From Candidatus Woesearchaeota archaeon (lineage in GTDB: Archaea > Nanobdellota > Nanobdellia > Pacearchaeales > GW2011-AR1), in contig CAZZGW010000001.1 in the NCBI GenBank assembly GCA_964653605.1, forward strand, positions 67,964 through 108,888: a stretch of DNA of 40,925 nt, in the 5' to 3' direction. The position numbers and the translations under genes are program-made. Each line of letters begins with the position of its first letter. The first letter of the stretch is position 1. This document shows positions 16,401 through 37,000 of this stretch, piece after piece. A model generated the notes under the pieces. It was not told the DNA's origin and made no database searches. It worked only from the letters and a program-made list of their open reading frames with translations.

Positions 16401-16460
16401 GAAACATCTGGTTTTTTTTGTATTTTCCTCAAAGTACTGAAAAAGATATTCTTGGAAATA

Positions 16461-16468
16461 TTTAAATA
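16461..16468 (+). promoter_or_regulatory. consensus archaeal TATA box TTTAAATA
   Basis: It is a perfect match to TTTAWATA and ends 22 nt upstream of the ATG at 16490 (leaderless geometry). Confidence 0.5.
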
Positions 16469-16489: not shown

Positions 16490-16696
16490 ATGAGGCACTA
16501 TAAAAGAAGTAAGGGGAAGATGGCAATTTTCTTAATTTTCTTAATTTTAGCTTTATATTTTGTGAATATGTCTTTAGATTTTGTTAAAATTCCTGCATTT
16601 ATATTAAAAATTGAAGATTGGATTGTTCTAATTGGGGGAATTCTGATTTTTATTGGCGGATTTAATTTTTTGAAAGTTAAGAGACATAATTTTTAA
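16490..16696 (+). CDS. small membrane protein (68 aa from ATG 16490; tracked ORF begins at TTG 16472)
   Basis: A basic N-terminus (MRHYKRSKGK) is followed by two hydrophobic helices. Confidence 0.45.
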   Translation: MRHYKRSKGKMAIFLIFLILALYFVNMSLDFVKIPAFILKIEDWIVLIGGILIFIGGFNFLKVKRHNF

Positions 16697-16784
16697 TTCT
16701 TATTTTGTAATTTGTCAACTTATTTTTAATGGAATTTACTTAGTAAGTAAGTAATTAAGTAATTAAGTAAGTTAATAAGAAAAC

Positions 16785-16794
16785 TTTATATATA
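16785..16794 (+). promoter_or_regulatory. candidate TATA element (TTTATATATA) upstream of the giant-protein operon
   Basis: This is the only strong TATA-like run in the gap and it is preceded by purine-rich AGAAAA. It lies 20 nt upstream of the GGAG at 16814-16817, which is rather close, so the transcription start site and this assignment are uncertain. Confidence 0.3.
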
Positions 16795-16824
16795 GGAATT
16801 ATCTTAAGTATTTGGAGTTTGATA

Positions 16825-16959
16825 ATGAAAAAGTATTTACTTCTTATAGAGGATGAGAAACTTTGGGAAAAGTTTAAGAAAGTTATTAAAAAAGATATAA
16901 ATACTGAGATCATAGAGTTAATAAAAGATAAAATTGGAGTAAAAGATAAAAATGAATAA
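16825..16959 (+). CDS. 44-aa ribbon-helix-helix-like small protein (not in ORF track), first gene of the giant-protein operon
   Basis: My translation is MKKYLLLIEDEKLWEKFKKVIKKDINTEIIELIKDKIGVKDKNE. The pattern is a beta strand (KYLLLI), helix A, an N-T-E turn and helix B, as in CopG/Arc/MetJ proteins. The SD GGAG lies 7 nt upstream. Its stop lies 8 nt inside the next gene (ATGAATAA). Confidence 0.4.
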   Translation: MKKYLLLIEDEKLWEKFKKVIKKDINTEIIELIKDKIGVKDKNE

Positions 16960-18781
16960 GCGGGGCCAATTAACAATTTTCATTATAATTGCCATACTTG
17001 TTGTAGCAATGGTCGTAGGATTCTTTGTTTTTTGGGATAGGCCAGGGCCTTCAAAAGTTCCAAGAAATTTTGAGCCGGTATATAATACATTTCTTACTTG
17101 TATAGAGGAAAATCTCCAGCTTGGGGTGGATGCTCTTTCAGTCCAAGGAGGATATATTGAATTGCCAGAATTTGAACCTGGCTCTTTGGCATTTCCATTT
17201 TCTTCTCAGTTAAACTTCGTTGGAACTTCTATTCCCTATTGGGATTATATTTCTGGAGGGGGAATGCACAAAACACAAATTCCTACCGTAGAGGATATGG
17301 AAGGGGAGTTGGAGGAGTTTGTTATTTCTAGAATGGATTATTGTAATTTTGATAGTTATTATGCTTCTGAGATGACTTTGCTTTTTGGTGAGGGAACTCC
17401 TAAAGTTAAGATAAAAGATGGGGAGGTTGTTTTGGATTTGGATTTGGATTTTGTAGCATCTCTTGAAGGAGAAACTATCTCAGTAGAAAGGCACCATATA
17501 GCAATTGTAACAAAGCTTGGAAGTTTGTATGAGGATGCTTTGAAAGTTTATGAGTATGAGCAAGAGGAAATGTTTTTGGAAGATTATGGCCTAGATGTTC
17601 TGAACTTATACGCTCCGGTTGATGGGGTTGAGTTTACTTGTGCCCCAAAAGTTTGGGTTGCGGATAATGTATTTTATGATATTGAAGAGGCGCTTGAGAT
17701 AAACACAATGGCAATGAAAGTTGGAAATGAAAAGGAATATTTTGATGTGGAGATTGGCACAAATAACGATGTCCGCTTTATCAATTCTAGACATTGGCCT
17801 AGAAGTTTTGAAGTTAATCCTAGCGAGGATAATATTTTAAGAGCAGACCCTGTGGGGAACCAGCCTGGAATGGGTATTTTAGGATTTTGTTATGTAAGTT
17901 ACCATTTTGTTTATAATATGAATTATCCTGTTTTAGTTCAGGTTCATTCTGGAGATTCTAATGAAGTTTTCCAATTTCCTATGGCTGTTGTTATCCAAGG
18001 GAATAGAGCAAGAGAGCCTTTGGCTGGAGATGCTCTCGGATTAGAGAAGGGAATAGATTTATGTGCTGGAATGAATAGCCCCACGCTTATTTCTGTTTAT
18101 GGTAATGACGGGAATAGGGTGGAAGCAAATCTTTCTTATAATTGTTTAAATGATAAATGTTACCTTGGGGGAACTGGGGGAGGGATATTTGAAGGTAATT
18201 TACCTCAGTGTGTTAATGGATTTATTTTAGCTAAAGCAGAAGGGTATGAAGAAGGAAGCTTTATGTATTCTAGTGTGGAGAGGGGCCAAGTTAATCTTTT
18301 CTTAGATAAACTCTATACCTTGGATTTGAATTTATTTATGGAGGGCAAAAGATATAGTGATGAGGCAATAATTAATTTTGTTTCGGAGGATAAAGTTAAA
18401 GCTGTTTATTATCCTCAACAAAAGCAGGTTGAACTTAGCGAGGGAGATTATGAAGTTAGAGTTTATGTTTATGCAGATTCTCGTTTAGAATTCCCTGAAA
18501 TGACCTATGAGCAATGTTATGACGTTCCTAGAGGGCCAATACTAGGTTACTTTGGAGCTACAAGAGAAGAATGTGTTGATGTTGAATATCCCGAACAGGC
18601 ACTTACAAATGCCTTAGTTGCTGGAGGAGCAGAAGAGCATTCTATTTCAGAGGACCAATTAAAATCTTCAAATGTTTTGGAAATTAACTTTGAGAGATTC
18701 CCAAATCCAAAAACAATTTCTCAGCTACAAGAAAACTATATTTTATTTGATCAGACGGGGGTGGATATTAAACTTAAATGA
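16952..18781 (+). CDS. 609-aa exported protein with class III (type IV prepilin-like) signal peptide; function unknown
   Basis: The N-terminus is MNKRGQ followed by LTIFIIIAILVVAMVVGFFVF. This gives a basic residue, Gly, Gln at +1 and then a hydrophobic helix, the archaeal prepilin peptidase substrate pattern. The remainder is an acidic, Cys-containing extracellular region. A beta-sandwich-like stretch (ISVYGNDGNRVEANLSYN...GFILAKAEGYEEGSF) is present. Confidence 0.85.
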   Translation: MNKRGQLTIFIIIAILVVAMVVGFFVFWDRPGPSKVPRNFEPVYNTFLTCIEENLQLGVDALSVQGGYIELPEFEPGSLAFPFSSQLNFVGTSIPYWDYISGGGMHKTQIPTVEDMEGELEEFVISRMDYCNFDSYYASEMTLLFGEGTPKVKIKDGEVVLDLDLDFVASLEGETISVERHHIAIVTKLGSLYEDALKVYEYEQEEMFLEDYGLDVLNLYAPVDGVEFTCAPKVWVADNVFYDIEEALEINTMAMKVGNEKEYFDVEIGTNNDVRFINSRHWPRSFEVNPSEDNILRADPVGNQPGMGILGFCYVSYHFVYNMNYPVLVQVHSGDSNEVFQFPMAVVIQGNRAREPLAGDALGLEKGIDLCAGMNSPTLISVYGNDGNRVEANLSYNCLNDKCYLGGTGGGIFEGNLPQCVNGFILAKAEGYEEGSFMYSSVERGQVNLFLDKLYTLDLNLFMEGKRYSDEAIINFVSEDKVKAVYYPQQKQVELSEGDYEVRVYVYADSRLEFPEMTYEQCYDVPRGPILGYFGATREECVDVEYPEQALTNALVAGGAEEHSISEDQLKSSNVLEINFERFPNPKTISQLQENYILFDQTGVDIKLK

Positions 18782-21700
18782 ATAAAAATTTAAAATTAAT
18801 TTTTGTATTTGCATTTGTTTTCTTATTTGTAATCTCTTTTGGTAGTGCGTATACAAAGTCATACCCTGACATTATGCAATATGTTGCAACAGGGGGGGTG
18901 GGTGCTTTTGCGCAAAATAGTTTGGCTTTTGATAAATCAATGTGCGAGACTGGAACTGATTTTTTATTACAAATTGTCCCTTTTAGTTGTGAACCAAATC
19001 CTATTAGAAGTGATTTGCTGGAAGAAGAAGATGTTGCTGTTTATTGTCAGATTGCTGCAACCCAAATAAATCCCTTAATTGATGTTGAGACAATTAAATC
19101 AATGAAAATAGTTCCGGATAGGAGCTTTGGAGGGGGGGTTGTTAAGAATATTGCTTATTATCCTTCACAGGCTGCTTTAGGAAGGATTCCTAGTGGGGTT
19201 GTTAATAATCCTATGCTGGAAAACTTAGGTTATGTTGTTATTATTGTTGGAAAAAATGCAAATGAATCTGCAATGCCTGATTTTGTAGAAGGGAATTTGA
19301 CTGCCACATTAAGATATGATATTCAGGGGGCTTTTGGAATTGGTAAGTCTGAATTTTATCTGCCTGTTTTAAGTGATTCCGAATTTCAAGATAGATATTT
19401 GCAATATGGTTTTTGGGATGGAAGAGGATACCTAAGAGCAGAAGGAGTTGGAGATCATGAGGCAAGAATTTCTATTTATTCTGACGCAGAAGTAACTACC
19501 GGATTTCCTTCAAGATCTGAAGGAAGAGATTATAGTCAATTAAGATATTCTTCTTATACTGTTGAGAGGGGTAAAGAATCTCCTGAAATTTATTTGCCGG
19601 GATTGAGTCCTTGCATGGCAGGATTTAAATTGAGGTTGAATGATGTAGAAAATCCAGATACCACTGCTCGTTTAAGAGTCAATTCTGAGGTTGTTGAAGT
19701 TAAGCAGGGAGAGAAATTTTTAGAGGATAAATGTACTGTTTTGAGTGTTGAACATCAAGGATTGCACCAGTCTGCAGAGATTCGTTGCATTGATGATGAT
19801 GGAAGAGGATATACCTCTTTATTGAGTAGATCTCCAGGAGTGGAGTTAGAATTTGATAAGGATAAGGATGGTCACCTCGATAAATTAGAATTTCAACTGG
19901 GAGATAAGATTTATTCGGATAGGAATAAAGATGTTTTCTTAGGATACGTTGGAAGTTTTGATAATTCTCTAGCTGAAAAGGATATGTTTGTTGTTCTTTT
20001 TGCTGCCCCTTCCGAAAGAGGAATTGTAAAGTTAGATGATACTCAACTGAGGGCCGTTGCAAGGTTTGTTAAGCATAGAACTAAAGATTTGGGGACTGGG
20101 GCTGCTTTTGTGGATAATTTTGTAAATTCTCTTTCTGCTTTGTCTGCGGTTTCTGTAGAAGGAGTTACTTGGTTGGTTAAAGGAGAAGATTTTGAGATTC
20201 TTATTAAGCGTGGTGATGGAGAGAGATTTAAATCTAGAGAAATTGAATTAAATGGTTTCTCTTCTTCTGGAGGGAGTGATTATTTCTCTGCTTTGGATCT
20301 TAATTCAAATTCTAGAGGTTACTATGACAATGCTATTGAGGATTTTGAAACTGTTGAGGATTTCTACTCGGAAGTATCTGCTGCGGATGGTTCTTTTGAT
20401 TCTTTAGGAGAGCAAGCTCTTTATGAGGCTTTAGTGCTTGCTAGCAGGGTTGGAGAGACAGAAAATTTACTAACTTTTTGTGATGAGTTTATTGAGTATT
20501 ATCCTAATTCTTTGGTGATGCCGAGAGTAAATCTTCTTTGTTATGATGAATATACAATTTCAAATACGGGGGATAATATTTTTGAAGTTTTAATTAATGG
20601 AGACTTAAAAGAAATAAGTTTAGAAAGAGTAAGGAATCCAACCTATGAGCAGTACGGGGCTGAAATTTATATTAGAGGTCCTAATGGAAAAGTAGAGTTG
20701 GTTAAGCTTGGAAAAGATGAAATTTTCTTTTTAGATGGATTTAGAGGGCAAGTAGATTATGATTCTCAAGAAAACATTCCTGAAGATGAAGAAGAGGTTT
20801 CTTCTTTTGAAGATATAGAAACTCCTGGTTTGAAGTTGAAAATTAAAGATTCTAAGAATGTTATGTATAAATATTACAAGGGGGCTTGGTATATGAGGGT
20901 TTGGAGAAAAGGGTTGATACAAGATCACGATGACACAATTCCTGGGGAGAACTTTATAAAATTAGAAACTTTTGATTCTGGCCTCTCAAAAGTTAGTTTG
21001 GAGAATAGGGACAAGAGAATAATAGATGATCTTAAAGATAAAGATTATGCAGAAGGAATGAAGATGCTTGTGGATATTGTTCTTGGGGAAGATGGTGCGT
21101 CTTTAGGATTAGAAAGTTTTTCGGATATGACTCATCTTAAAAGTGATGGAAGATATGTGAATACCCAAGGAAATTCAAGGGATGTGGATTTTAGATTTGA
21201 TAAATCAACAGAAAAATGGTACTGGGGAAGTGATGCTAGTGTTCTTGGAAGAGCCTCCTGGATTGATGTTTCTGAATCTGGAGGAGATCAAGAAAAGTTC
21301 CTTAATGAGGATGGAGAAAAAAATAAAGCTACGGTTCTGAGAAATATGGGTCTTTATGAGGGAACTGCGTTTTTATTCTGGCATGATTCTTCTTACAACG
21401 AGAATACAGATGATAATTTCGATTATGATATAAGGGTTTCTGATACGGGAAAAATAGAACTTGGATTTAATCCAGAATCAATTGCTTTGGAAGATTTAGG
21501 AGATGATAGGGCAACTATTAATTTCCAAAGGGTTGAGAATTTTGTTGAGAGAAATTTTGTTACAGATAATAAACAGCTTACTTTGAATAAAGAAATTTCT
21601 ATTGGGGATTATTATGTAACTCTCAAGGATATTCATCTTGAAAAAGTTGCTAGGGTTACTGTTGTTCCAATGGTAAATAATCAATTCTCAAATTCTACTT

Positions 21701-24700
21701 TTCCCTATAGGGTTGCAATTGAAAAGAGAAAATTCCCTATGTCCGATGAAAGGATAAATGAAAAAATTGAGACGCTTGATGGGAGGATTGAGTGGCTGAA
21801 TACTACTGCAGAATACTTAGAAACAACAGTTGAAATAGGGAACAAGGTTTGTACAGGGGTTGGTCTTGGATTAACACTTAAGAATTTAATAAATAATATG
21901 AACGGGGGATCAATTGCAAGAACTTCTGTTATGCAAGGGAAAGGGGGATGGAATGAGGTCTGTCAGAAAGCGATGGCCGCAAAAGAACCAGAATATAGTT
22001 CCTTAGATGATTGTTTCTTGGAGCATTCTAAGGAAATAGACAATGATGTTAAAATGTACACAGATATTTTGAAAAGCCAAAATGATGCTCTGGCTCGTTG
22101 TGAGGGAGAAGTTAAAGGAGATGATGGAAACTTTGCAGAGAGATCTTATATAAATCAACAGCAATTGGTTGATTGTTATTTGGAGAATAGGATTAATGAT
22201 CCGAATAGTGGTTTGGGAGATACTTTAGATCAATTGGAAAGTAAAGGATATGTTGGACCAGATGGAAAATTCTATGCAAAGTTGGCAGAAGATGGTGTCA
22301 CTCCTTTGGGTGTGGGGGTGGATATCTCTGAAATTGATGAAGTTTTAAGTAAGAAAGTGGATGATGAAAATTATGCATTTAAGAAAAATGTATATTCCGT
22401 AGAACAATTAAAGGAAATTGAGTATTATAGTCTTGCACTTCAGGAAGATCCCGCTAATGATATGGCTAGGGAAAGATTGTACTCTTCTTTGACTGATTTG
22501 GAAAAGAATGCAAGGAACTTTAATCAAATTTCTGAAGTTGCTAATAGGGCAAACATTGATATTGATAAGGTAGGATATACTTATACTGGAGACTTAAAAC
22601 AACAAAGGGAAAATATCTATTTAGGATTAACAAAAGGAACTTATAACCAAGCGAGAAATATTCCAAATGTTGAAAATGGAGAGCCAATCTATGTTTCTGG
22701 GTCTAATCATGGAAGTTTTATGGTGGTTTTAGCAGACACCGAAGATAGTGGGGATGGAAGTAAAATGGCTGTAAAGAGAGATGATGATGGGCCTTTGATT
22801 TATGATTTAGAAGGAGAGAGAATATTTAGGCAAAAAGGAGATGATAATAATGAAGGGACAGCAATAATAAATGCAGTTGAAAACACAGTTTATGTAAAGA
22901 GAGATGCCGCTTCCTATAGAAATCCTTATACTAATCCTAGAGTTAAGTATTTTGATAACGAATTAACTGGAGGATATCCAGCGGTTGTTCCTGTGGATAC
23001 TGTTAATGGATGGTATGCTGCAACTAAATCAACTTTGCCTGTTGGAGGAAATATAGCCGCTTTTGATAAATCTGGAGTTGTTAGGAGCTTTTGGTTGTGT
23101 AATGTTGGAGAAAATGGGCTTGAAGAATATATTTCTGGAGATGATATTTGTAGCATGATTAATCTTGGAACAGGAGATGATTACACTGCTTTCCATAACT
23201 TGGATCCAAGTAAAGTTGAAAATTTAATTAGACAAGCAACAAGAAATATTGAAGAAGCTCAAAGCGCCAATAAGAATTCTAGAGGGTGGGTTACTATAGA
23301 TAGAAAGAGGTATCAAGTTGGTCAACCTCAAGCCGAAATTCCTTCAGTCCAATGCCAAGATTTAATGTCTCCTAAAGATTGTAGTTTAATGTATAACTTT
23401 TGTGATCCTTTTGTTTGTCCTAGTTCAAGATGTGATCTAGGAGGAAAGTATCCTGTAAGGGATGTTGTTCAATCTGGAATTTTTGGAGGGGTCGTTTTAT
23501 GTTACCCTAATGCTAAATGGCATGGAGGGGATGTTTATGTTCCGATTTGCGTTTCTGCAATAAGTGCGGGTGTAGATGGATGGTTACAAGTTAATAAAGG
23601 ATATAGAGATTGTTTGCAACACAATTTGGATACTGGAGAGACAGTTGGAATTTGTGACGAGATGCATAGTATTTACTTGTGTGATTTCTTTTACAGGCAG
23701 GCGAAACCTATTCTACAATTAGGAATTACTGAGCTTGGTTCTGCTTTATTAGGGCAAAATAGTCGTGGAGGTGGAGAATATATGACCTTTAAGAATGCTA
23801 TTAGTAATGCTGGAGATTCAATAGATTACTTTAAACAATATTACGCTGCAGAGGCATATAGGGCATTTAAACTTAGATCTGTGGATCAAATAAGTATTAA
23901 TGATCCTTGTGGGACTTTCCAGTCAGTAATTTTTCCAAATAGTGGAGAGGTTTTAGATTCATTAACTCAAGCCAGATCTCCTGTTCAGTTTACTGGTAAA
24001 TTTGAAGAAATGCAATTAACAACAATTACAAATCCTCCAACTTCGCACTATAAAGTTTATTATCAGATTTATGCTGGAAAAGATTCTGGGGCTTACTATC
24101 AAGTTTATTTGAGAGGAGGTAGTGGTAGCGATTATTATAGAGATACAACTTTTGATAGAATTGTTGATTCTGGACATATTGCTGCTGGGCAGAGTGTTTT
24201 TAATACAGAAGATTTCCAGGCACCTTCTGGCTACAAAGAGCTTTGTGTTGTTGTAAATGGCCAACAAGAATGTGGGTTCCAACAGGTTTCTACTTCCTTT
24301 GGAATTAACTATCTTAGTGATCTTTATATGAATCAACAAGCTAGCGAAACAGATATTAAAACAGAGAAAGAATGCATTTCTGGGTCTTCTAGTATGTATC
24401 AACTATTAAATCCTAATTTGCAGTCTGCTGCAGAAAATATTATTGATCCTGCCGTGTATAATAATGGATTATATAGAAAGTGTGCAACCCACGATCCTGG
24501 GGCTGGGGTGGATAGTAAAGCTGGAACAGAAGATGCACGTTGGGTGAAAGTAGGTTATTGTGGGGACACAAGTATTGGGTGTTGGATTGATACGGATAGT
24601 GTAAAGGATGTAATAAAACATTTGGGGTTAGAAGAAGATGCATTGAACAAAACTTCTGAGAATTTTCTTGATGAATTGTTTGAAGATGGAAACTATCTTA

Positions 24701-27700
24701 GCGATGATGAATTTAATGATGTTTTATTGAGTGTAGATGATGCTGAAGAGGGGGAAGCCAAACTTAGGATTTTAACAAATATCTTAGAAAGAATCTTTTG
24801 GAATAACCAAAAAGCAATTGTACATTTTAAGAGAGGAGAAGTTTTTGCAAGTATGGTAAATGCAGAGAAGTGCCCTTATTACTGTTGGGGGGAACAAAAG
24901 GGAGCCCAAGCAAACGAATATGTTGATGGAAAGTTGTATTATGGGATTTATAGGCCTAATTCAGATAAATGTTCTCGTAGTGATGAAATTGCAGAAGACT
25001 GTGAAAAAGGATGCCATGATCCAGATGGATATGGTCAGGGAGACCCTGCTATCTGTTTGAATGATGTTCCTCTTTCTGTAGAAGATGTTAAGGATTTAGA
25101 AAATAAAGATTCTTCTGAGTTTGAATTTAATTCTGGAGGAATAAATCCATTTAGAACTTATTGTTATGCGTTTGTTGCGGGAGAAGGATGGTTTTGGATT
25201 AATAAAAAATGTGGGTTCGCTGTTATTGGAGAAGAGGATTCTGAGTGGAAGAGTGTTGGAGAGGCTGGGGAGGCAAAAGGAGTTCACTATGATGTCACAT
25301 ATAGTTTGAATGGTAAGGGTTATTGGGGTGGTTTAGTTACTTTAATGAATGGTCTTAAAAGTGGGAAAACTGGAAGAAATGCAAAGATAACTGCAATGGA
25401 ATCTAAAACTGAAATTACGCATGGGTCAGTTGGTGATTCTGCTATTGTTACTTTCAAATTTGTAGCCCCTAAAGTTGCTGGAGAGAGGTTCTTTTCCAAT
25501 GAAGATAGTAATTTTTATTCTTCTTCTACAAATGGTTGGACTTACTTCTTTGGGCATAAAGAGCTTGATAATGGAAGAAGCTTTTATTCTGGAGTTGAAT
25601 GGGGAGAATTTGCTGCTGGAACTGGTTTGTCCCTACAATATTTTGATTTTGCTAATTGGTTTTTTACTAAGAACAATAAAGAAGGAATTTTAATTTTAAT
25701 TGGAGATTTGCCTGTTGACTATGAGGCATCTGAAATAGACATTAATGAGGAAGGAGTTAAAGATTATTGTAGTATATTAATGGGAGAATGTAAGAATTCT
25801 CTTGATTGTATGGGACCAATTTTTGAGAAAATTGTTACTCCTGATTGTGAAGACCTTGGAGAGATTTGTTGTGTTGATGGAGTTCCTCCCGGAATGGATG
25901 TTTTTGGTTATTGTGGGATGTTGGATGGAGAATGTTTGGGTTCTTCTGAGTGTGTAGGTCCTGTTTATGAAGGAATTGCTACTCCTGATTGTGAAGATGT
26001 TGGGGGTGTGTGTTGTGTTTCAATTGCAAGCATCCCCGGGGAAGACCCCGTGTCTGGGGAATGCAGTGATTGTAAATCAGGCTTCTGGGATATATGTGCT
26101 GAAGAGGAATGTTTAGAGATTGAACAGAAAACAGGAAGAGATTGCGTTTTTGCTAAGAATACTTTTGGTATTGGGGGTGTTTGTTCTGAAAAAGGGGAAG
26201 AGCCCCAAGAAGAGGTAGATGCTCCAACAGAGTGTAGTGATTGTAAAGATAATTATTTTGAAAAATGTACCCAAGAAGAATGCTCTGAAATTGGAATGCA
26301 GTTGAATAAAAATTGTGTTTATAAAAGAGCATTGGGGATATTTGGAAATTGTGTTGAGGAGGAGTTGAAAGTAATTGTTTGTCCAGAGGATTTAGATTCA
26401 GATGAGATTGAACCTGGAGATAAAGTTATTTGCGATGTTGTTCCGGCAGAAGAAGCTGAAGATGTTAGTGATAGTGCTAAATTTATTATCCCTTCTGGAA
26501 TTGATCCAGGAGAGATTGTTTGGTATGAAATCCCAGATGTTAGGGGAGACGAATATAATAGGGACGCTATAGTTTTTGAAATTCCAGACATTATTGAAGT
26601 CGGAACAGAAATAGAAGCAGAGATTGTAGAGATTGCAGAGGTTAAAGAATTTGAAGATGATTTTATTGGTTTGCCTTGCGGAGAGATGGGGGCTTTTGGG
26701 CAATGTATTTCTATTGATTCTGAAAGAGATCCTTTGGGGCTTAATTCTTGCGAGGGGAATGTTAGAAAGTTAGATTGTCCTGGGGGAAGTAATATTAGGT
26801 GTTGCATTCTAGATAGTCAGTTTGTTGGAGATCCTTGCGGTTTGGATGGAACTTGTCTAGATAGAAATTTTCTAGGAACTTCTTGTGATGGAGATTGGCA
26901 AACTGGTCTTTGTGGGGGGACAAGTGCTATTCAATGTTGTGTTCCAGAATCTCTTCCTCCTGATCCAAATCCTGATGAGAATTTAGAAAAAAAGATAGTT
27001 TGTAATGATTTTAGTGATGGGGACGGATGGACTTTAGAAAGAGGATGCGATATAAAAGTTCCTGATGCTAACGATCTTGAAAATAAAATCATTTGTCCTG
27101 TTCCGCCTGTAAGAGTTTACGAACAGATTAATTGTAAAGTCCCAGATGAAAGTGAAGAAAAACCTTTTTGGTGTAATATAATTGGAAGTTCAAATAATCC
27201 TAGTGAAGCAGATTGTTATGTCCATGGAGGGGAGAATTTAGGCCCTACCACAAACGTGAGAGTTTTGGAAGAAGTAGAACAACAGGATGGAGAAATTGTG
27301 CCTGGAACAACTTTTGCAACATATGAAGAAGGGGGAGTTCTTGCTAAGAAAAATGCTCACTGTGCCACTGCTATATATAATCTCCTTGGAGAAGCAGGGT
27401 GTGGAACTTCAGGAGCTGTTTATGGGGTTCCTAGTGGAGATAATTTTAATATTTATAGGGGAAGTATTCTTTCTGTTCTAGTAGGTTCTGGAGATGGTTG
27501 GAGGTGCACAACATCTGCTAGAAGTTCTAATAAAGTTTATGGGGTTGTTTTAAATGAATTGGTTCCCGGACAGTATTTAGATGTTGTCTTTGACACTAAT
27601 AATGCAGGGGAAACAATATGCCACACACTTATTTTTATGGGCTGGGAAGATAGAGATAATTATAGGGCAGTAATTTTTGACTGGATAGGCGGCAACTTAA

Positions 27701-27861
27701 ATTTGGGCACTGGGGGATGTACTTCTGATGATGCAGAAGGAGGGGTTTGTCATACGTATGGCTATGAAATAGTTAGTTTAAGAGAAAGTGCCATCTCCGG
27801 AGAAACTAATTATCCTATATACAGAGTTATGAGGCCCGTTGTTGATGATCAATTTACTTAG
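18778..27861 (+). CDS. giant secreted cysteine-rich protein (3027 aa), unknown function, C-terminal putative papain-fold hydrolase domain
   Basis: A 9084-nt open frame without interruption in an AT-rich genome cannot plausibly be chance. It has a Sec-type signal peptide (MNKNLKLIFVFAFVFLFVISFGSA/YT) and I see no later TM segment. The start overlaps the upstream stop (ATGA). Internal Cys-rich repeats and a C-terminal Cys/His/Asp pattern are described in the findings. Confidence 0.9.
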   Translation: MNKNLKLIFVFAFVFLFVISFGSAYTKSYPDIMQYVATGGVGAFAQNSLAFDKSMCETGTDFLLQIVPFSCEPNPIRSDLLEEEDVAVYCQIAATQINPLIDVETIKSMKIVPDRSFGGGVVKNIAYYPSQAALGRIPSGVVNNPMLENLGYVVIIVGKNANESAMPDFVEGNLTATLRYDIQGAFGIGKSEFYLPVLSDSEFQDRYLQYGFWDGRGYLRAEGVGDHEARISIYSDAEVTTGFPSRSEGRDYSQLRYSSYTVERGKESPEIYLPGLSPCMAGFKLRLNDVENPDTTARLRVNSEVVEVKQGEKFLEDKCTVLSVEHQGLHQSAEIRCIDDDGRGYTSLLSRSPGVELEFDKDKDGHLDKLEFQLGDKIYSDRNKDVFLGYVGSFDNSLAEKDMFVVLFAAPSERGIVKLDDTQLRAVARFVKHRTKDLGTGAAFVDNFVNSLSALSAVSVEGVTWLVKGEDFEILIKRGDGERFKSREIELNGFSSSGGSDYFSALDLNSNSRGYYDNAIEDFETVEDFYSEVSAADGSFDSLGEQALYEALVLASRVGETENLLTFCDEFIEYYPNSLVMPRVNLLCYDEYTISNTGDNIFEVLINGDLKEISLERVRNPTYEQYGAEIYIRGPNGKVELVKLGKDEIFFLDGFRGQVDYDSQENIPEDEEEVSSFEDIETPGLKLKIKDSKNVMYKYYKGAWYMRVWRKGLIQDHDDTIPGENFIKLETFDSGLSKVSLENRDKRIIDDLKDKDYAEGMKMLVDIVLGEDGASLGLESFSDMTHLKSDGRYVNTQGNSRDVDFRFDKSTEKWYWGSDASVLGRASWIDVSESGGDQEKFLNEDGEKNKATVLRNMGLYEGTAFLFWHDSSYNENTDDNFDYDIRVSDTGKIELGFNPESIALEDLGDDRATINFQRVENFVERNFVTDNKQLTLNKEISIGDYYVTLKDIHLEKVARVTVVPMVNNQFSNSTFPYRVAIEKRKFPMSDERINEKIETLDGRIEWLNTTAEYLETTVEIGNKVCTGVGLGLTLKNLINNMNGGSIARTSVMQGKGGWNEVCQKAMAAKEPEYSSLDDCFLEHSKEIDNDVKMYTDILKSQNDALARCEGEVKGDDGNFAERSYINQQQLVDCYLENRINDPNSGLGDTLDQLESKGYVGPDGKFYAKLAEDGVTPLGVGVDISEIDEVLSKKVDDENYAFKKNVYSVEQLKEIEYYSLALQEDPANDMARERLYSSLTDLEKNARNFNQISEVANRANIDIDKVGYTYTGDLKQQRENIYLGLTKGTYNQARNIPNVENGEPIYVSGSNHGSFMVVLADTEDSGDGSKMAVKRDDDGPLIYDLEGERIFRQKGDDNNEGTAIINAVENTVYVKRDAASYRNPYTNPRVKYFDNELTGGYPAVVPVDTVNGWYAATKSTLPVGGNIAAFDKSGVVRSFWLCNVGENGLEEYISGDDICSMINLGTGDDYTAFHNLDPSKVENLIRQATRNIEEAQSANKNSRGWVTIDRKRYQVGQPQAEIPSVQCQDLMSPKDCSLMYNFCDPFVCPSSRCDLGGKYPVRDVVQSGIFGGVVLCYPNAKWHGGDVYVPICVSAISAGVDGWLQVNKGYRDCLQHNLDTGETVGICDEMHSIYLCDFFYRQAKPILQLGITELGSALLGQNSRGGGEYMTFKNAISNAGDSIDYFKQYYAAEAYRAFKLRSVDQISINDPCGTFQSVIFPNSGEVLDSLTQARSPVQFTGKFEEMQLTTITNPPTSHYKVYYQIYAGKDSGAYYQVYLRGGSGSDYYRDTTFDRIVDSGHIAAGQSVFNTEDFQAPSGYKELCVVVNGQQECGFQQVSTSFGINYLSDLYMNQQASETDIKTEKECISGSSSMYQLLNPNLQSAAENIIDPAVYNNGLYRKCATHDPGAGVDSKAGTEDARWVKVGYCGDTSIGCWIDTDSVKDVIKHLGLEEDALNKTSENFLDELFEDGNYLSDDEFNDVLLSVDDAEEGEAKLRILTNILERIFWNNQKAIVHFKRGEVFASMVNAEKCPYYCWGEQKGAQANEYVDGKLYYGIYRPNSDKCSRSDEIAEDCEKGCHDPDGYGQGDPAICLNDVPLSVEDVKDLENKDSSEFEFNSGGINPFRTYCYAFVAGEGWFWINKKCGFAVIGEEDSEWKSVGEAGEAKGVHYDVTYSLNGKGYWGGLVTLMNGLKSGKTGRNAKITAMESKTEITHGSVGDSAIVTFKFVAPKVAGERFFSNEDSNFYSSSTNGWTYFFGHKELDNGRSFYSGVEWGEFAAGTGLSLQYFDFANWFFTKNNKEGILILIGDLPVDYEASEIDINEEGVKDYCSILMGECKNSLDCMGPIFEKIVTPDCEDLGEICCVDGVPPGMDVFGYCGMLDGECLGSSECVGPVYEGIATPDCEDVGGVCCVSIASIPGEDPVSGECSDCKSGFWDICAEEECLEIEQKTGRDCVFAKNTFGIGGVCSEKGEEPQEEVDAPTECSDCKDNYFEKCTQEECSEIGMQLNKNCVYKRALGIFGNCVEEELKVIVCPEDLDSDEIEPGDKVICDVVPAEEAEDVSDSAKFIIPSGIDPGEIVWYEIPDVRGDEYNRDAIVFEIPDIIEVGTEIEAEIVEIAEVKEFEDDFIGLPCGEMGAFGQCISIDSERDPLGLNSCEGNVRKLDCPGGSNIRCCILDSQFVGDPCGLDGTCLDRNFLGTSCDGDWQTGLCGGTSAIQCCVPESLPPDPNPDENLEKKIVCNDFSDGDGWTLERGCDIKVPDANDLENKIICPVPPVRVYEQINCKVPDESEEKPFWCNIIGSSNNPSEADCYVHGGENLGPTTNVRVLEEVEQQDGEIVPGTTFATYEEGGVLAKKNAHCATAIYNLLGEAGCGTSGAVYGVPSGDNFNIYRGSILSVLVGSGDGWRCTTSARSSNKVYGVVLNELVPGQYLDVVFDTNNAGETICHTLIFMGWEDRDNYRAVIFDWIGGNLNLGTGGCTSDDAEGGVCHTYGYEIVSLRESAISGETNYPIYRVMRPVVDDQFT
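25765..26019 (+). repeat. tandem duplicated 6-Cys module, pair 1 (within the giant CDS)
   Basis: YCSILMGECKNSLDCMGPIFEKIVTPDCEDLGEICCV aligns with YCGMLDGECLGSSECVGPVYEGIATPDCEDVGGVCCV (aa 2330-2414). Confidence 0.85.
26056..26364 (+). repeat. tandem duplicated 6-Cys module, pair 2 (within the giant CDS)
   Basis: GECSDCKSGFWDICAEEECLEIEQKTGRDCVFAKNTFGIGGVCSEKGEE aligns with TECSDCKDNYFEKCTQEECSEIGMQLNKNCVYKRALGIFGNCVEEE (aa 2427-2529). Confidence 0.85.
26671..26943 (+). repeat. tandem duplicated 6-Cys module, pair 3 (within the giant CDS)
   Basis: LPCGEMGAFGQCISIDSERDPLGLNSCEGNVRKLDCPGGSNIRCCI aligns with DPCGLDGTCLDRNFLGTSCDGDWQTGLCGGTSAIQCCV (aa 2632-2722). Confidence 0.8.
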
Positions 27862-27867
27862 CTAGAA

Positions 27868-28287
27868 TTATTTAATTCTGACGGAATCTCCGAGTTCTAG
27901 GCTTGAAATATCAAGGCCAGGGTTTAGACGAAATATGTGTCCTTCTTTTTTTCCTGTATTATAATATAAGTTTCCTAATCTTTTGAGTATATTTTCCATG
28001 TAAGCTGTATCTAGAGGGTTTATTGTGTGGTAGACTGTGTCTTTTTCTTTCATTCTTTGCGATGTTTCTTCCGAGCTCATTTTATATTTTATAACAAGTT
28101 TTCTTAACCTTTCCATTTTCATTTCTTCTTTTTCTTCAGGGTCTAATTCTCTCTTTATTGTGTCTTGGAATACTACTTTCTCAATAGTGTTTTTAACGGG
28201 GAAGTTAGTGTTTTCAATAGAATCATAATTTGGAGTACCCATGCTGGTTGCTGTTGCTAAAAGTAGTGGGATTAAGATTTTTTTCAT
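27868..28287 (-). CDS. small secreted protein (139 aa) with weak LysM-like C-terminus
   Basis: The signal peptide is MKKILIPLLLATATSMG. The C-terminus VYHTINPLDTAYMENILKRLG...IFRLNPGLDISSLELGDSVRIK loosely follows the LysM pattern (Y.V..GDT...IA......L..LN.L....L..GQ.L.IP). Its start abuts the stop of the upstream lipoprotein gene. Confidence 0.6.
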   Translation of the reverse strand: MKKILIPLLLATATSMGTPNYDSIENTNFPVKNTIEKVVFQDTIKRELDPEEKEEMKMERLRKLVIKYKMSSEETSQRMKEKDTVYHTINPLDTAYMENILKRLGNLYYNTGKKEGHIFRLNPGLDISSLELGDSVRIK

Positions 28288-29319
28288 TTATTTTAAACCG
28301 GCATCTATTTCTTGCTGGAGCATTTTTTCAAGATATGCTTTTCTTACTTTTATAGAATCCATTTGTCTTTCGTGTTCTGCGTCTAAAAGCATTCTTTTTT
28401 CCATTTCTTCTCTATATCTCATATAATCTGTTATATCTTGAGGCATTTCTGACTGTGTTGGTTGTACAGAAGTGGAATCGGCAGGTTGTGTTGGTTGTTC
28501 TGTTTCTTTTTTTCCAAAACATCCACAGTCTTCTGCATCTGTTTGGTTTTCTTCTATAATTGGTCTGAAAAAACCTTTATCATTAGCAATTATTAGTGTT
28601 TTCTTACCCTGGTCTACAGTACCTTTGGTGTTATCTGTTATTGGAATAAATACTTCTGGTAAAGAACCTTCTGGAGTGTACATTGTTACTTGTTCTAAAA
28701 CTCCAACTCCTTTAGAATTTTCTTTCCTTACAAAATAGTTTGCTTTTTCTCCATCAAAGTATAAATAATCACAACCTTCTATTTCTACTCTTGGAATTTT
28801 TTTCTTAAAACTTCCACTATTAAAATTAAAAGCATGTCCGAAAGCTTTTTTATCCCCATTTCTTTTAGCTTTTCTTAATTCTCTTGTTACTTTTGCCTTT
28901 ACTCTTCTATCAGTTATTTCTACAGCTGCTATTGATTGTCCTTTTTTAACTAGTTCTGTAGGAACATATTTTTGTCCTTCTAAGGTTGATTCTCCGGTGT
29001 TCGTATCTACTGCTTCCCAGATTCTTGCTTCTTCAAAAGGGGTCATTGTGAAGGGTAATTCTCCTCCATCCTGGTCAGTGTTTTTTACCATAAAATATTC
29101 TCTTTGTTTTCTTTTGCTTCCTTCGAATAAAACTTGCCCTTCTAATTGGTATTTGTTTTTCGTTTCACTTTGAGAATAATGATTTCCTTTAATAGATCCT
29201 TCTATATATGATCCTTTAGAATTATCTGCTTTGTTGTCAGAATTACAAGAAGTTAATGTAGGGGCTAAAGTTGCTCCTAGTAACATTGCTGTAAGTCCTA
29301 ATCTTTTTATTGTTTTCAT
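28288..29319 (-). CDS. putative lipoprotein (343 aa), unknown function
   Basis: The signal peptide carries a lipobox: MKTIKRLGLTAMLLGATLAPTLTS-C. A P/T/Q-rich linker (ETEQPTQPADSTSVQPTQSEMPQ) and a C-terminal charged helix follow. Confidence 0.7.
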   Translation of the reverse strand: MKTIKRLGLTAMLLGATLAPTLTSCNSDNKADNSKGSYIEGSIKGNHYSQSETKNKYQLEGQVLFEGSKRKQREYFMVKNTDQDGGELPFTMTPFEEARIWEAVDTNTGESTLEGQKYVPTELVKKGQSIAAVEITDRRVKAKVTRELRKAKRNGDKKAFGHAFNFNSGSFKKKIPRVEIEGCDYLYFDGEKANYFVRKENSKGVGVLEQVTMYTPEGSLPEVFIPITDNTKGTVDQGKKTLIIANDKGFFRPIIEENQTDAEDCGCFGKKETEQPTQPADSTSVQPTQSEMPQDITDYMRYREEMEKRMLLDAEHERQMDSIKVRKAYLEKMLQQEIDAGLK

Positions 29320-34839: not shown

Positions 34840-35883
34840 TTATTTTTTGTTTAAAATATTTTTTATGTTATTTTCTAATTTATCTATGTCATTTATGTTA
34901 ATTTGGGCTCCAACTGCATTTATGTGTCCTCCGCCTGTAGAGTTTTCTAGAGGTTTTATTGCTTCCAACACTAGTTCCTTTACATTTTCCCCTCTTGCAG
35001 AGATATTGGCCTTTGGGCCTTTTGTAAATATTACAAGAATTATCTTTTCGGGGAATAAGAAACTTAGTTTATTTGCGAGATCTGCACTCATACTTGTGTC
35101 CCCCGCATATTTGAATAGGAGAAGGTTTCCAGAAACTTCTTTTTTTGCTTTTTCTATAAATTTATTGAAACTTTTTTCTATATTTGCGAATCTTAAAGTA
35201 AGTATTTTATTTTCTTTTGATTCGTTTAGGATGTCATAGGGATTTTTTGCATTGTTTAGGACTTTTATCATTTGGATCACGTTTGAAATCCTATCTTTTA
35301 ATCCAAATCCTATCATTCTTGATACTTTTCCTATTTCGGAATTATAAAGTATTTCAAAAGGATCTTTGGAATCTACTGAGAGCTCAGGATATTCTTCTTT
35401 GAATTGTTCATAAAATTTTGGGGTAAAGTGATCTGCAACGCATCCAACAACTCCTAACCAAGAATCTTCTTTTTTGTTTGTTATTTGATAACACAAAGCT
35501 GTTGTCGGCTCTGAAGTTTTTTCTTTATTATATACGGGATTGTAATAATTAATAAATTCTGGAACATAAAAGTCTTCTATTTCATGATGGTCTATCCAGA
35601 CCGTAGGAATATTATTTTCTCTAACCTCTTCAAAAAATTCTTTTGATACTTCTGGCTGGTCTAATATAAAAATATAATCTGCATTTAGTTCCCTAATTTT
35701 TCTAAAATAGTCTTTTGTCATTTCTGGGGAAACTTTTATTGGATACCCTTTTCCCCTTTTAATGAATCTCTTCAATAATATAAAACTGCATAATCCATCC
35801 TGGTCATTATCAAAGAAAAATAAGGGATTTTGGGCTTTGTCTAGATGTTCTCTAATTTCTTTTACTTGTTTTTCTGTTAACAT
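34840..35883 (-). CDS. stand-alone DHH/DHHA1 phosphoesterase (NrnA/Pde2-like); candidate c-di-AMP/pApA phosphodiesterase
   Basis: DHH motifs FFFDNDQDGLCS and WIDHHE are present, as is the DHHA1 motif GGGHINAVG. It is 347 aa long and lies 7 nt downstream of disA on the same strand. Confidence 0.75.
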   Translation of the reverse strand: MLTEKQVKEIREHLDKAQNPLFFFDNDQDGLCSFILLKRFIKRGKGYPIKVSPEMTKDYFRKIRELNADYIFILDQPEVSKEFFEEVRENNIPTVWIDHHEIEDFYVPEFINYYNPVYNKEKTSEPTTALCYQITNKKEDSWLGVVGCVADHFTPKFYEQFKEEYPELSVDSKDPFEILYNSEIGKVSRMIGFGLKDRISNVIQMIKVLNNAKNPYDILNESKENKILTLRFANIEKSFNKFIEKAKKEVSGNLLLFKYAGDTSMSADLANKLSFLFPEKIILVIFTKGPKANISARGENVKELVLEAIKPLENSTGGGHINAVGAQININDIDKLENNIKNILNKK

Positions 35884-35890
35884 GTTAAGG

Positions 35891-37000
35891 TTATATCTGC
35901 TTTCCTAAATTAATCTTCTCTCTTAAACTATATAATTCTTCCTTAAAAAAGGATATCATCCCTTCGCTTTCAAATATACTTATTAATTCCTCATCATTTG
36001 CAAGAAGAATTTTATCTAGTACTTTAAAGTTTGAAATTAGAGAATGGATGTATCTTTCTAGGATGTTTGTTTTGCTTAAAATTCTTATTCCTTTAGGAGA
36101 GACTTTTTTATCGTGAAGTTCTTCAAATAATGTTCTAGAAATATTTAGAGGTTCTAATAAGAAATCAAAATCCATCTTTTCAAGTAATTCTTTTGCGTAT
36201 GGGGAGTCGTTCCCAAAATAGTCTTTAAGTAAGAGATCTTCTTCTTTTTCTAGTCCGCCTGCAAGTTCTTTTAACCTCATACTAACAATCATCCCTTCCT
36301 TCCCCAACTCAACGAGGTATCTCTTTACCATTTCTGAAATTCTCTTTATTATTTCAAATCTTTGAATTACCCCACAAACATCATTTATTGTGGACATTCT
36401 GTTTAGTTCTAAATGGTTTAGGTTGTTTAAGTGTTCGTTTAAACTTTCTCTTTGTTTTTCTAAAATTTGTAGTGTTTCTGCTGCACGTCTCAAAATTTCT
36501 GAAGACTCCTTTAATTCATGTCTTTGATTTCCATAGTATAGCGTTATTTTCTTTTTTCTTTCAGAAATTGCTAAAACTATTGCCCCTGTTTGTTTTGCCG
36601 TTCTTTCTGCTGCTTTGTGCCTTGTTCCTGTTTCTTTTGTTGAAATTTCTTGATTTGGAGAAAGTAAGGTATTTGCATGGAGAATCTTTTTTATATTCCT
36701 TGAAAGAATTATTGCCCCATCCATCTTTGCCAATTCAACCAGTTTCTGTGAGGTGAATCTAGAATATATCCTGAATCCTCTTTCAACAACTTTTTCAATT
36801 TGCCCATTGTCTACAACAACCAATGCGCCCATTCCAGCATTGAGCAAATCATCTAGAGCGCTTCTTATTGAAGTTCCTGGTGCAAACATTTTTAGAACAT
36901 CTATGAAACTTTTTTCTTGTATTTCTGTTTTTTTTGGAGAACTTTCTGGGACAAATAATTCATCTACTTCAGAATTTTTTTCAGCTTCGCTTTTATCCAT
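35891..37000 (-). CDS. disA: DisA-type diadenylate cyclase (DNA integrity scanning protein)
   Basis: It is close to Bacillus DisA as I recall it: MFAPGTSIR versus FVAPGTPLR; ELAKMDGAIILS identical; KILHANTLL; ETGTRHKAAERTAKQTGAIVLAISERKKKITLY versus [33 protein letters not shown]. The 369-aa length and three-domain layout also match. Confidence 0.9.
   Translation of the reverse strand: MDKSEAEKNSEVDELFVPESSPKKTEIQEKSFIDVLKMFAPGTSIRSALDDLLNAGMGALVVVDNGQIEKVVERGFRIYSRFTSQKLVELAKMDGAIILSRNIKKILHANTLLSPNQEISTKETGTRHKAAERTAKQTGAIVLAISERKKKITLYYGNQRHELKESSEILRRAAETLQILEKQRESLNEHLNNLNHLELNRMSTINDVCGVIQRFEIIKRISEMVKRYLVELGKEGMIVSMRLKELAGGLEKEEDLLLKDYFGNDSPYAKELLEKMDFDFLLEPLNISRTLFEELHDKKVSPKGIRILSKTNILERYIHSLISNFKVLDKILLANDEELISIFESEGMISFFKEELYSLREKINLGKQI

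Follow-up and report, generated by a model that had tools for sequence, protein, structure and literature searches.

A conserved operon of Pacearchaeota and Woesearchaeota encoding a prepilin-like protein and a giant protein with variable, apparently wall-directed modules

We analysed a 40,925-nucleotide (nt) stretch of DNA from a Candidatus Woesearchaeota archaeon (assembly GCA_964653605.1, contig CAZZGW010000001.1, positions 67,964 to 108,888), hereafter the window, and within it an operon of three plus-strand open reading frames (ORFs) that encode a 44-amino acid (aa) mini-protein, a 609-aa prepilin-like protein and a giant protein of 3027 aa. Pacearchaeota and Woesearchaeota are DPANN archaea, ultrasmall and with reduced genomes, and belong to the Nanoarchaeota of GTDB. 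They are among the most widespread uncultured archaea, and this operon is probably the best genomic handle on how they contact their hosts. We read the locus as encoding a lineage-specific surface complex that presents exchangeable murein-binding and murein-cutting modules to bacterial walls, a reading to which we assign a probability of about 0.5.

The closest described proteins are those of fam00969, a family specific to Woesearchaeota and Pacearchaeota whose members reach 3,000 aa, are predicted to be extracellular and have been proposed to attach to bacterial walls (Castelle et al., 2021; PMC8204110). That study cites earlier sightings of giants of this type (Rinke, 2013; Castelle, 2015), and the peptidoglycan or wall idea was repeated later (Vigneron et al., 2022; PMC9723730) and by other authors. 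The giant family examined here appears to be fam00969, as judged by the published description and not by sequences. The two share the same lineage restriction, size, predicted extracellular location and proposed role, and two homologues bearing an SLT domain (P0012 and P0021) align with the window giant over its full core. The window giant differs in having no SLT domain; its module is instead an NlpC/P60-like domain that goes undetected by Pfam. The operon partners (the 609-aa and 44-aa proteins and a 68-aa protein encoded upstream), the core of about 1,800 residues and its division into two blocks, the internal insertion site and the frequency of the NlpC/P60-like domain are absent from the accounts consulted (PMC8204110; PMC9723730). 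A preliminary description of this stretch, made from the sequence by itself, had recognised no characterised family in most of the two large proteins; apparently the same family, with the same role proposed for it, was already in print (PMC8204110), and what is gained here is for that reason refinement and testability and not a new principle. The locus is real, conserved and biologically interesting, and less novel than first supposed.

Four other systems resemble this one in logic and not in ancestry, and none agrees with it in every defining feature. The familiar polymorphic toxins (CdiA/CDI, Rhs/YD, MafB and LXG) likewise combine a conserved N-terminal and central part with a variable C-terminal effector, include peptidoglycan hydrolases among their effectors and act in contact with another cell. 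The preliminary description had invoked their logic, and the variable, faster-evolving tail of the giant fits it in part, but the remainder does not: there is no same-strand immunity gene downstream (the following gene is convergent in the window and in the related loci L001 and L003), the giant carries a Sec signal only and has no two-partner, type VI or type VII secretion partner, no sharp pre-toxin motif was seen, tails stay homologous among close relatives with apparently no strain-level swapping of cassettes, and neither sequence nor fold is similar. SlaA and SlaB, the S-layer proteins of Sulfolobales, also come from a unit of two genes, the large outer protein having no anchor and being kept in place by a smaller partner that sits in the membrane. 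Their gene order is reversed, however, there is no similarity of sequence or fold, the giant has few N-glycosylation sequons and carries enzymatic modules, and SlaB anchors by a C-terminal helix whereas the 609-aa protein has an N-terminal class III anchor. The SPEARE giants of Nanohaloarchaeota, which Hamm and colleagues are said to have described in 2019, are reportedly multidomain DPANN surface proteins proposed to attach to or breach hosts. They differ in belonging to another lineage with archaeal hosts and in carrying serine protease, adhesion and restriction endonuclease domains, and we detected no homology to them. Finally, the Archaeovorins are bacterial proteins of more than 10,000 aa, rich in glycosyltransferases, from ultrasmall predatory Omnitrophota (West-Roberts et al., 2023; bioRxiv 10.1101/2023.11.21.568195). 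Like the giant, they are multidomain proteins of great length made by an ultrasmall organism that depends on a host, with occasional SLT or peptidase domains and a proposed role in binding and degrading the partner's wall, but they are far larger, hold many recognisable domains and have no described pilin-like partner, and no homology to the giant core was found.

Gene linkage and the prepilin-like protein

The three genes lie at 16825-16959 (44-aa ORF, ATG start), 16952-18781 (609-aa ORF) and 18778-27861 (giant ORF), all on the plus strand. The first overlaps the second by 8 nt (ATGAATAA at 16952-16959), and the second overlaps the third by 4 nt (ATGA at 18778-18781). A Shine-Dalgarno-like GGAG stands at 16814-16817, 7 nt ahead of the 44-aa ATG, and purine-rich motifs (GAGG or GGGG) occur at the equivalent position in related loci. 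Purine-rich stretches also precede both internal starts, GGAG at 16936-16939 before the 609-aa gene and GGGGGTGG at 18757-18764 before the giant gene. The ORFs, both overlaps and the GGAG are thus placed as the preliminary description had them, and its estimate that the unit takes up 27% of a window otherwise filled with archaeal housekeeping genes was borne out (11,084 of 40,925 nt; the neighbouring genes are named below).

Conservation was assessed by a scan of one genome per GTDB species, and locus counts were made on the best 80 loci, with 76 or 77 loci as the base of the gene-linkage counts. The 609-aa protein is encoded in at least 455 species genomes. It has more than 1,548 homologues of near-constant length (604-639 aa) at 45-66% identity, while homologues of the giant number more than 334 and range from 1,874 to 3,064 aa. 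Named sources of homologues are Pacearchaeota or ‘uncultured archaeon’, and the labels Pacearchaeota, Woesearchaeota, Nanoarchaeota or plain ‘archaeon’ account for 78 of the 80 best loci. In the other two (L022 and L047) the archaeal operon sits on contigs within metagenome-assembled genomes (MAGs) labelled Bacillota and Muribaculaceae, which probably reflects binning contamination of public genomes.

In 73 of 77 loci the 609-aa gene is succeeded by a long ORF on the same strand. The two share the identical ATGA overlap in 45 loci, and the start of the giant gene falls between -20 and +60 nt in 62. The same order and overlaps recur on dozens of MAG contigs that are independent of one another, and chance falls far short of explaining the arrangement. 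That the 609-aa gene and the giant gene are linked in relatives bears out the earlier proposal that they form one expression unit. The linkage proposed for all three genes held only in part: only 35 of 76 loci have the 44-aa ORF, and in these it always terminates 4-11 nt inside the next gene. Given its absence from about half of the loci, we regard this ORF as accessory and not as a core part. The operon, its overlaps and its flanking synteny are the same in the three loci L001-L003, with Gins51, YbjQ and S3Ae kept upstream and, in L003, GatD and a permease downstream. The conserved synteny and linkage argue for a vertically inherited core locus as opposed to a mobile island; an origin by horizontal transfer or from a mobile element was rejected on this synteny together with the lack of mobile-element genes among the ORFs scanned.

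An archaeal BRE/TATA-like element (B recognition element and TATA box; AAGAAAACTTTATATATA, 16777-16794, plus strand) precedes the 44-aa ORF and is conserved in relatives: about 30 loci have a near-identical element (TTAAGAAACATTTATATA) lying 30-50 nt ahead of the ATG of the 44-aa ORF. Its conservation and position point to it as the operon promoter, and the three genes would then constitute a real co-expressed cluster driven by one conserved promoter. The preliminary description had seen no promoter-sized gap; this is right among the three genes but not upstream of them, where the operon has this element of its own. A scan for sigma-70 promoters and intrinsic terminators found no more sites than in shuffled sequence, the models being irrelevant to an archaeon, and a generic TATA pattern search of the window was uninformative.

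The 609-aa protein begins with the leader MNKRG, followed by QLTIFIIIAILVV and about 20-22 hydrophobic residues. We aligned 120 homologues around the predicted cut site. At position -1 they have Gly (97), Ala (18) or Ser (5) without exception, and at -2 Lys or Arg in 105; on the mature side, all 120 have Gln at +1 and Phe at +5 and 117 have Thr at +3, and the modal leader is 5-6 residues long. The prepilin-type signal recognised in the preliminary description is therefore well founded, and invariance on either side of the predicted cut favours a processing site over a simple anchor. By its conservation this N-terminus is a very clean archaeal class III (prepilin-like) signal, at which the protein would be cleaved. 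Archaeal surface proteins that do not form pili (bindosome-type proteins) also use prepilin-type signals for surface anchoring.

Beyond the signal, the protein has a putatively extracellular alpha/beta region, tandem beta-sandwiches and 10 cysteines, nine of them invariant. An AlphaFold2 (AF2) model built from 65 sequences (mean predicted local distance difference test, pLDDT, 78) places a membrane helix at residues 4-28, an alpha/beta fold over the N-terminal half and the beta-sandwiches at 374-582. The protein matched nothing in Pfam, in NCBIfam or among PDB sequences. Foldseek searches of the model against PDB and viral models returned local beta-sandwich matches only (TM-score about 0.1) to pilins, adhesins, carboxypeptidase-regulatory-like domains and phage fibres; homology to Gram-positive pilins or phage fibres was rejected. 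We read the protein as a non-enzymatic, membrane-proximal stalk or anchor.

A stalk of this kind raises the question of whether the two proteins make up the main envelope of the cell, as an S-layer-like coat in which the giant is the outer canopy, the 609-aa protein its membrane-anchored stalk, as in SlaA and SlaB, and the hydrolases are secondary. We know of no S-layer gene for the Pacearchaeota/Woesearchaeota lineage, and no known S-layer family was matched among the window ORFs scanned, which leaves room for such a coat. The occurrence of the locus across at least 455 species genomes, with its place beside ribosomal and replication genes conserved, would suit it, as would a near-consensus, conserved promoter and coupled translation, which fit abundant stoichiometric production, and the character of the proteins themselves: both are acidic (isoelectric point, pI, 4.3-4.4), the giant is anchorless, and its partner has an N-terminal membrane helix and beta-sandwiches. 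However, comparisons with Pfam, NCBIfam and PDB, and by Foldseek, found no S-layer family similar to either protein, and N-glycosylation sequons are scarce (5 in the 3027 aa of the giant, 1 in the 609-aa protein). The 609-aa protein, at 45-66% identity, is unusually conserved for an exposed lattice component, and the murein-directed enzyme modules that recur in the giant family would be superfluous for a coat protein. We consider a coat function doubtful.

Architecture of the giant and its modules

The giant (pI 4.4, 90 cysteines) has a single hydrophobic segment, its N-terminal signal. This was predicted to be a Sec-type signal peptide at aa 1-24 (18778-18849, plus strand), cut after GSA and before Y25, and a motif of the form ...SF.SA-Y.RS is conserved at the signal of giant homologues. 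The segment and the motif together uphold the Sec signal assigned in the preliminary description, and the signal would be expected to be cleaved.

We defined the regions of the giant by BLAST and global alignments. Core A (aa 25-660; 18850-20757) is covered by 114-119 of 119 homologues in BLAST. It is followed by an internal variable insertion (aa 661-899; 20758-21474), with which only 10-45 of the 119 align, and then by core B (aa 900-2030; 21475-24867), again delimited by BLAST coverage and containing long helices and beta domains. Core B also includes a block of invariant, Cys-rich sequence (aa 1526-1640; nt 23353-23697) that has a short hydrophobic stretch and is more strongly conserved than any other part of the giant. 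The best reading of these alignments is that cores A and B form a conserved, disulfide-rich scaffold of about 1,800 residues. With the variable tail (aa 2031-2824; 24868-27249) almost no homologue aligns. In the window giant it contains Cys-rich linkers, a beta-rich region, three tandem pairs of Cys-rich repeats and an acidic linker. The repeat pairs, at nt 25762-26049, 26050-26397 and 26662-26985, align with z-scores of 22, 16 and 8.5 against shuffled sequence, so that the Cys-rich repeats suspected earlier are real. All of these regions lie on the plus strand.

Profile searches of Pfam, NCBIfam and PDB with all three proteins gave nothing significant, core A matched no family, and a profile of the whole giant family had no match among PDB sequences. 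Foldseek of the core B model against PDB returned nothing below E = 0.04, and the Ig-like pieces that came up (E ≥ 0.05) were rejected, as the model is of low confidence. Two further candidates were set aside. The sequence DKDKDGHLDKLE at 19855-19890 (aa 360-371) looks like a canonical EF-hand calcium loop and gave a weak Pfam match (E about 0.06; aa 358-373), which we treat as incidental because the stretch is unconserved in the family. A W-rich, choline-binding-like module (WYW/WFW) seemingly shared by the insertion and the tail aligned no better than shuffled sequence.

At its extreme C-terminus the giant carries a papain-type Cys-His domain that alignment and profile search liken to NlpC/P60 (aa 2825-3026; 27250-27855, plus strand). 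The candidate triad is Cys2862 (27361-27363), His2949 (27622-27624) and Asp2968 (27679-27681). In an alignment of 18 sequences Cys2862, His2949 and two tryptophans are invariant, and at least 90% of the sequences retain Asp2968, within FDW; two motifs emerge, N-C-x-x-A..Y.Y and L.PGDL.S.VY....HN.IFI.W.D....A.LFDWNG. The domain occurs in 66 of 120 family members and occupies the extreme C-terminus in 27. Pfam scans of the 18 family domains gave two weak NLPC_P60 matches (best E 0.038), one to Amidase_6 and one to CHAP. A profile search of 1.84 billion representatives found 130 proteins, among which the distant matches P0316 (E = 5e-9) and P0322 (E = 6.5e-7) pass the NLPC_P60 threshold, with 29.8 and 24.7 bits against 23, and both the Cys motif and the PGD...H motif align in each. 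By this transitive link we place the domain, with moderate confidence, in the NlpC/P60 papain-like superfamily (Pfam clan Peptidase_CA). The Cys-His(-Asp) hydrolase put forward in the preliminary description thus gains a conserved set of residues and a likely superfamily, its activity being a prediction.

Other relatives carry other domains at the variable sites. SLT is found in 15 of the 119 listed giant homologues that share the whole core (in P0012 at aa 2104-2202), and the window giant has no SLT match at E ≤ 1, which makes SLT a facultative module of the family. VanY occurs in P0006 (aa 2944-3023), YkuD in P0113 (aa 2741-2902) and Trypsin_2 in P0103, and further variable-site domains are, among others, DUF1615, ankyrin and leucine-rich repeats (LRR). 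In P0098 a Peptidase_M23 domain (aa 712-802) lies between the two core blocks, at the internal insertion site, indicating that the giant tolerates insertion of a whole domain internally as well as C-terminally. As far as these assignments go, the commonest enzymatic module of the family is the unannotated NlpC/P60-like domain and not SLT, which suggests that surveys scoring SLT/GH23 alone would under-count ‘peptidoglycan-degrading’ DPANN. VanY (D-Ala-D-Ala), M23 and YkuD act on bacterial murein, which contains D-amino acids.

The tail evolves much faster than the core: identities between relatives are 68% in the tail versus 94.7% in the core for one comparison and 37% versus 81% for another. 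Tails remain homologous at core identities of 80% or more, and unrelated tails are seen only at about 73-76% core identity. Such a tail recalls polymorphic toxins, and with a Sec signal and no anchor the giant might be released as a free modular enzyme or toxin that scavenges the murein of dead bacteria as a source of amino acids and sugars or kills competitors, the 609-aa protein being a helper in export or assembly or functionally unconnected. The murein-degrading domains of relatives and the NlpC/P60-like tail of the window giant would serve such an enzyme well, and Pacearchaeota have been proposed to take amino acids from bacterial peptidoglycan (PMC11537232). It is nevertheless hard to see why a diffusible enzyme should keep about 1,800 residues of conserved core with no enzymatic part, and the tight translational coupling to a pilin-like protein of the membrane, seen in 73 of 77 loci, points to a complex. 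We found no immunity gene, pre-toxin motif or specialised secretion system, and the homology of tails among close relatives speaks against the swapping of cassettes. Release of the giant as a free agent is in our judgement unlikely.

The target of the modules might also be an archaeal wall, either the cell's own envelope or that of an archaeal host (for example the pseudomurein of a methanogen), in the course of remodelling, division or a symbiosis between archaea. Papain-like Cys-His peptidases include the pseudomurein endoisopeptidases, and to our knowledge all culture-confirmed DPANN hosts so far are archaea. The VanY, M23 and YkuD domains of relatives, however, are specific to the D-amino-acid murein of bacteria, and the pseudomurein peptidase family was unmatched in the Pfam scan of 18 terminal domains. 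In favour of an archaeal target, an action of SLT-like domains on pseudomurein has been put forward as a speculation (bioRxiv 10.1101/2023.11.21.568195). We consider an archaeal target highly improbable.

A possible role at bacterial walls

The surface complex that we favour could work as follows. One conserved promoter would drive the optional 44-aa protein, the 609-aa protein and the giant, and the ATGA overlap would couple translation of the latter two, making a fixed proportion between them likely. The 609-aa protein would be exported, would probably lose its leader to a prepilin peptidase cutting behind the Gly of K-R-G|Q, and would stay in the membrane or in a pilus-like stem by means of its 22-residue hydrophobic helix, with its beta-sandwiches facing outward. 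The giant, exported by Sec and lacking an anchor of its own, would most likely be retained at the surface by its 609-aa partner, perhaps with help from the 68-aa membrane protein. Its disulfide-rich core of about 1,800 residues could then act as a scaffold that presents fast-evolving modules at the internal site and at the C-terminus. In this genome a cysteine peptidase or amidase of NlpC/P60-like type would stand at the end; the modules of relatives are lytic transglycosylase, D-Ala-D-Ala carboxypeptidase, M23 endopeptidase, L,D-transpeptidase-fold, trypsin-like, ankyrin or LRR domains. Such an apparatus would bind a bacterial wall and cut it locally, for host attachment, lysis of prey or harvest of wall material. 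An immunity protein would not be needed, because most of the enzymatic modules target bacterial murein, which the archaeon lacks. The preliminary description had already imagined a cell-surface apparatus directed at a partner cell, and the murein-active SLT, VanY, M23 and YkuD domains at the variable sites of relatives fit that idea.

Several observations weigh against the wall-directed complex. No fold could be recognised in the core, and AF2 modelled core B with low confidence (pLDDT 59.7). The terminal domain of the window giant lies below every Pfam threshold and gave no Pfam hit, and some tails in the family carry ankyrin, LRR or other domains unrelated to murein. The evidence for contact between the 609-aa protein and the giant consists of their coupling and co-occurrence, from which we infer it. 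No pilus ATPase, platform protein or prepilin peptidase was found among the 20 larger window ORFs scanned with Pfam, which include the neighbours of the operon. Lastly, the wide and probably single-copy presence of the locus, its fixed position and the conservation of the 609-aa protein would fit a structural component of the envelope as well.

A bolder version would make the complex an inter-domain feeding organelle, with the 609-aa protein as its stem, the tail of the giant cutting murein and the Cys-rich block at aa 1526-1640 inserting into the host membrane as a channel or cytoplasmic bridge by which the archaea would parasitise bacteria. We think this very unlikely; were it true, it would add a new class to the machines that breach cells and show directly, at the molecular level, that archaea live as episymbionts on bacteria. 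For the surface complex itself, the pairing of a giant with a prepilin-type protein, the large scaffold and the NlpC/P60-like module offer concrete experimental targets.

The 44-aa ORF, upstream elements and neighbouring genes

The 44-aa ORF encodes a basic mini-protein of the pattern MKKYLLLIEDEKLW.KFK..I.KDINTEI..LI, predicted to be cytoplasmic, with 16 of its 44 positions invariant and no signal peptide. The label ‘ribbon-helix-helix-like’ (RHH) given to it in the preliminary description found no backing: Pfam scans of 20 members showed no RHH family at E ≤ 10, a PDB profile search of the family found no RHH, and hhalign of the family against the weakly RHH_1-like tail of the protein in the same slot of locus L005 returned a probability of 1%.

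Two loci have another small gene in this slot. In L033 (8900-9152) it encodes an 83-aa winged-helix protein (HTH_11, E = 4.6e-6, above threshold), and in L005 (9567-9996) a 142-aa protein with a weakly RHH_1-like C-terminus (E = 0.025). Both are unrelated to the 44-aa ORF and overlap the start of the 609-aa gene by 8-16 nt, suggesting that a small DNA-binding protein has been recruited repeatedly at this position. Our working guess is that the 44-aa protein may be a small regulator, the one hint being the position that it shares with these two proteins.

Just ahead of the promoter, at 16733-16778 (no strand assigned), lie AT-rich repeats of the TAAGTAA type (TAAGTAA/TAATTAAG) with overlapping palindromes. 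About 30 related loci have comparable strings (ACTTAGTAA/TAAGTAAGT, and ACTTAGTAA...TAAGT) in the corresponding position. An operator is one possibility, a stop-rich AT spacer or insulator another.

Further upstream, at 16490-16696 on the plus strand, is a gene for a 68-aa membrane mini-protein with two predicted membrane helices. A hidden Markov model (HMM) built from homologues matches the window copy with E = 1.4e-28, and in 62 of 76 loci it finds the gene ahead of the 609-aa homologue, at a distance of 50-400 nt and on the strand of that homologue. The protein matched no Pfam or NCBIfam family. Its gene has a TATA-like box of its own at 16459-16466, and the spacing of 24-31 nt between this box and the ATG suggests a leaderless transcript. 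The unit probably starts further upstream than the three genes, at the 68-aa gene.

The window has a GC content of about 0.28-0.39 and is otherwise occupied by archaeal housekeeping genes, those for S3Ae, L10, Gins51, GatD, SRP54, FtsY, phosphoglycerate mutase, DisA and deoxyhypusine synthase and four tRNAs. The gene downstream of the giant is convergent, on the opposite strand, and ends 6 nt past the giant stop. This region (27868-29319) holds two minus-strand ORFs of 139 and 343 aa with no Pfam or NCBIfam match, and at the corresponding slot L003 has an unannotated ORF of 381 aa; the convergent ORFs may represent another lineage-specific conserved gene. Elsewhere on the minus strand (34840-37000, also 959-2299), a DisA-type diadenylate cyclase (DAC and DisA-linker domains) adjoins a DHH/DHHA1 phosphoesterase. 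The pair is also present in L003 and looks like a bacterial-type pair for synthesis and degradation of cyclic di-AMP in a DPANN archaeon.

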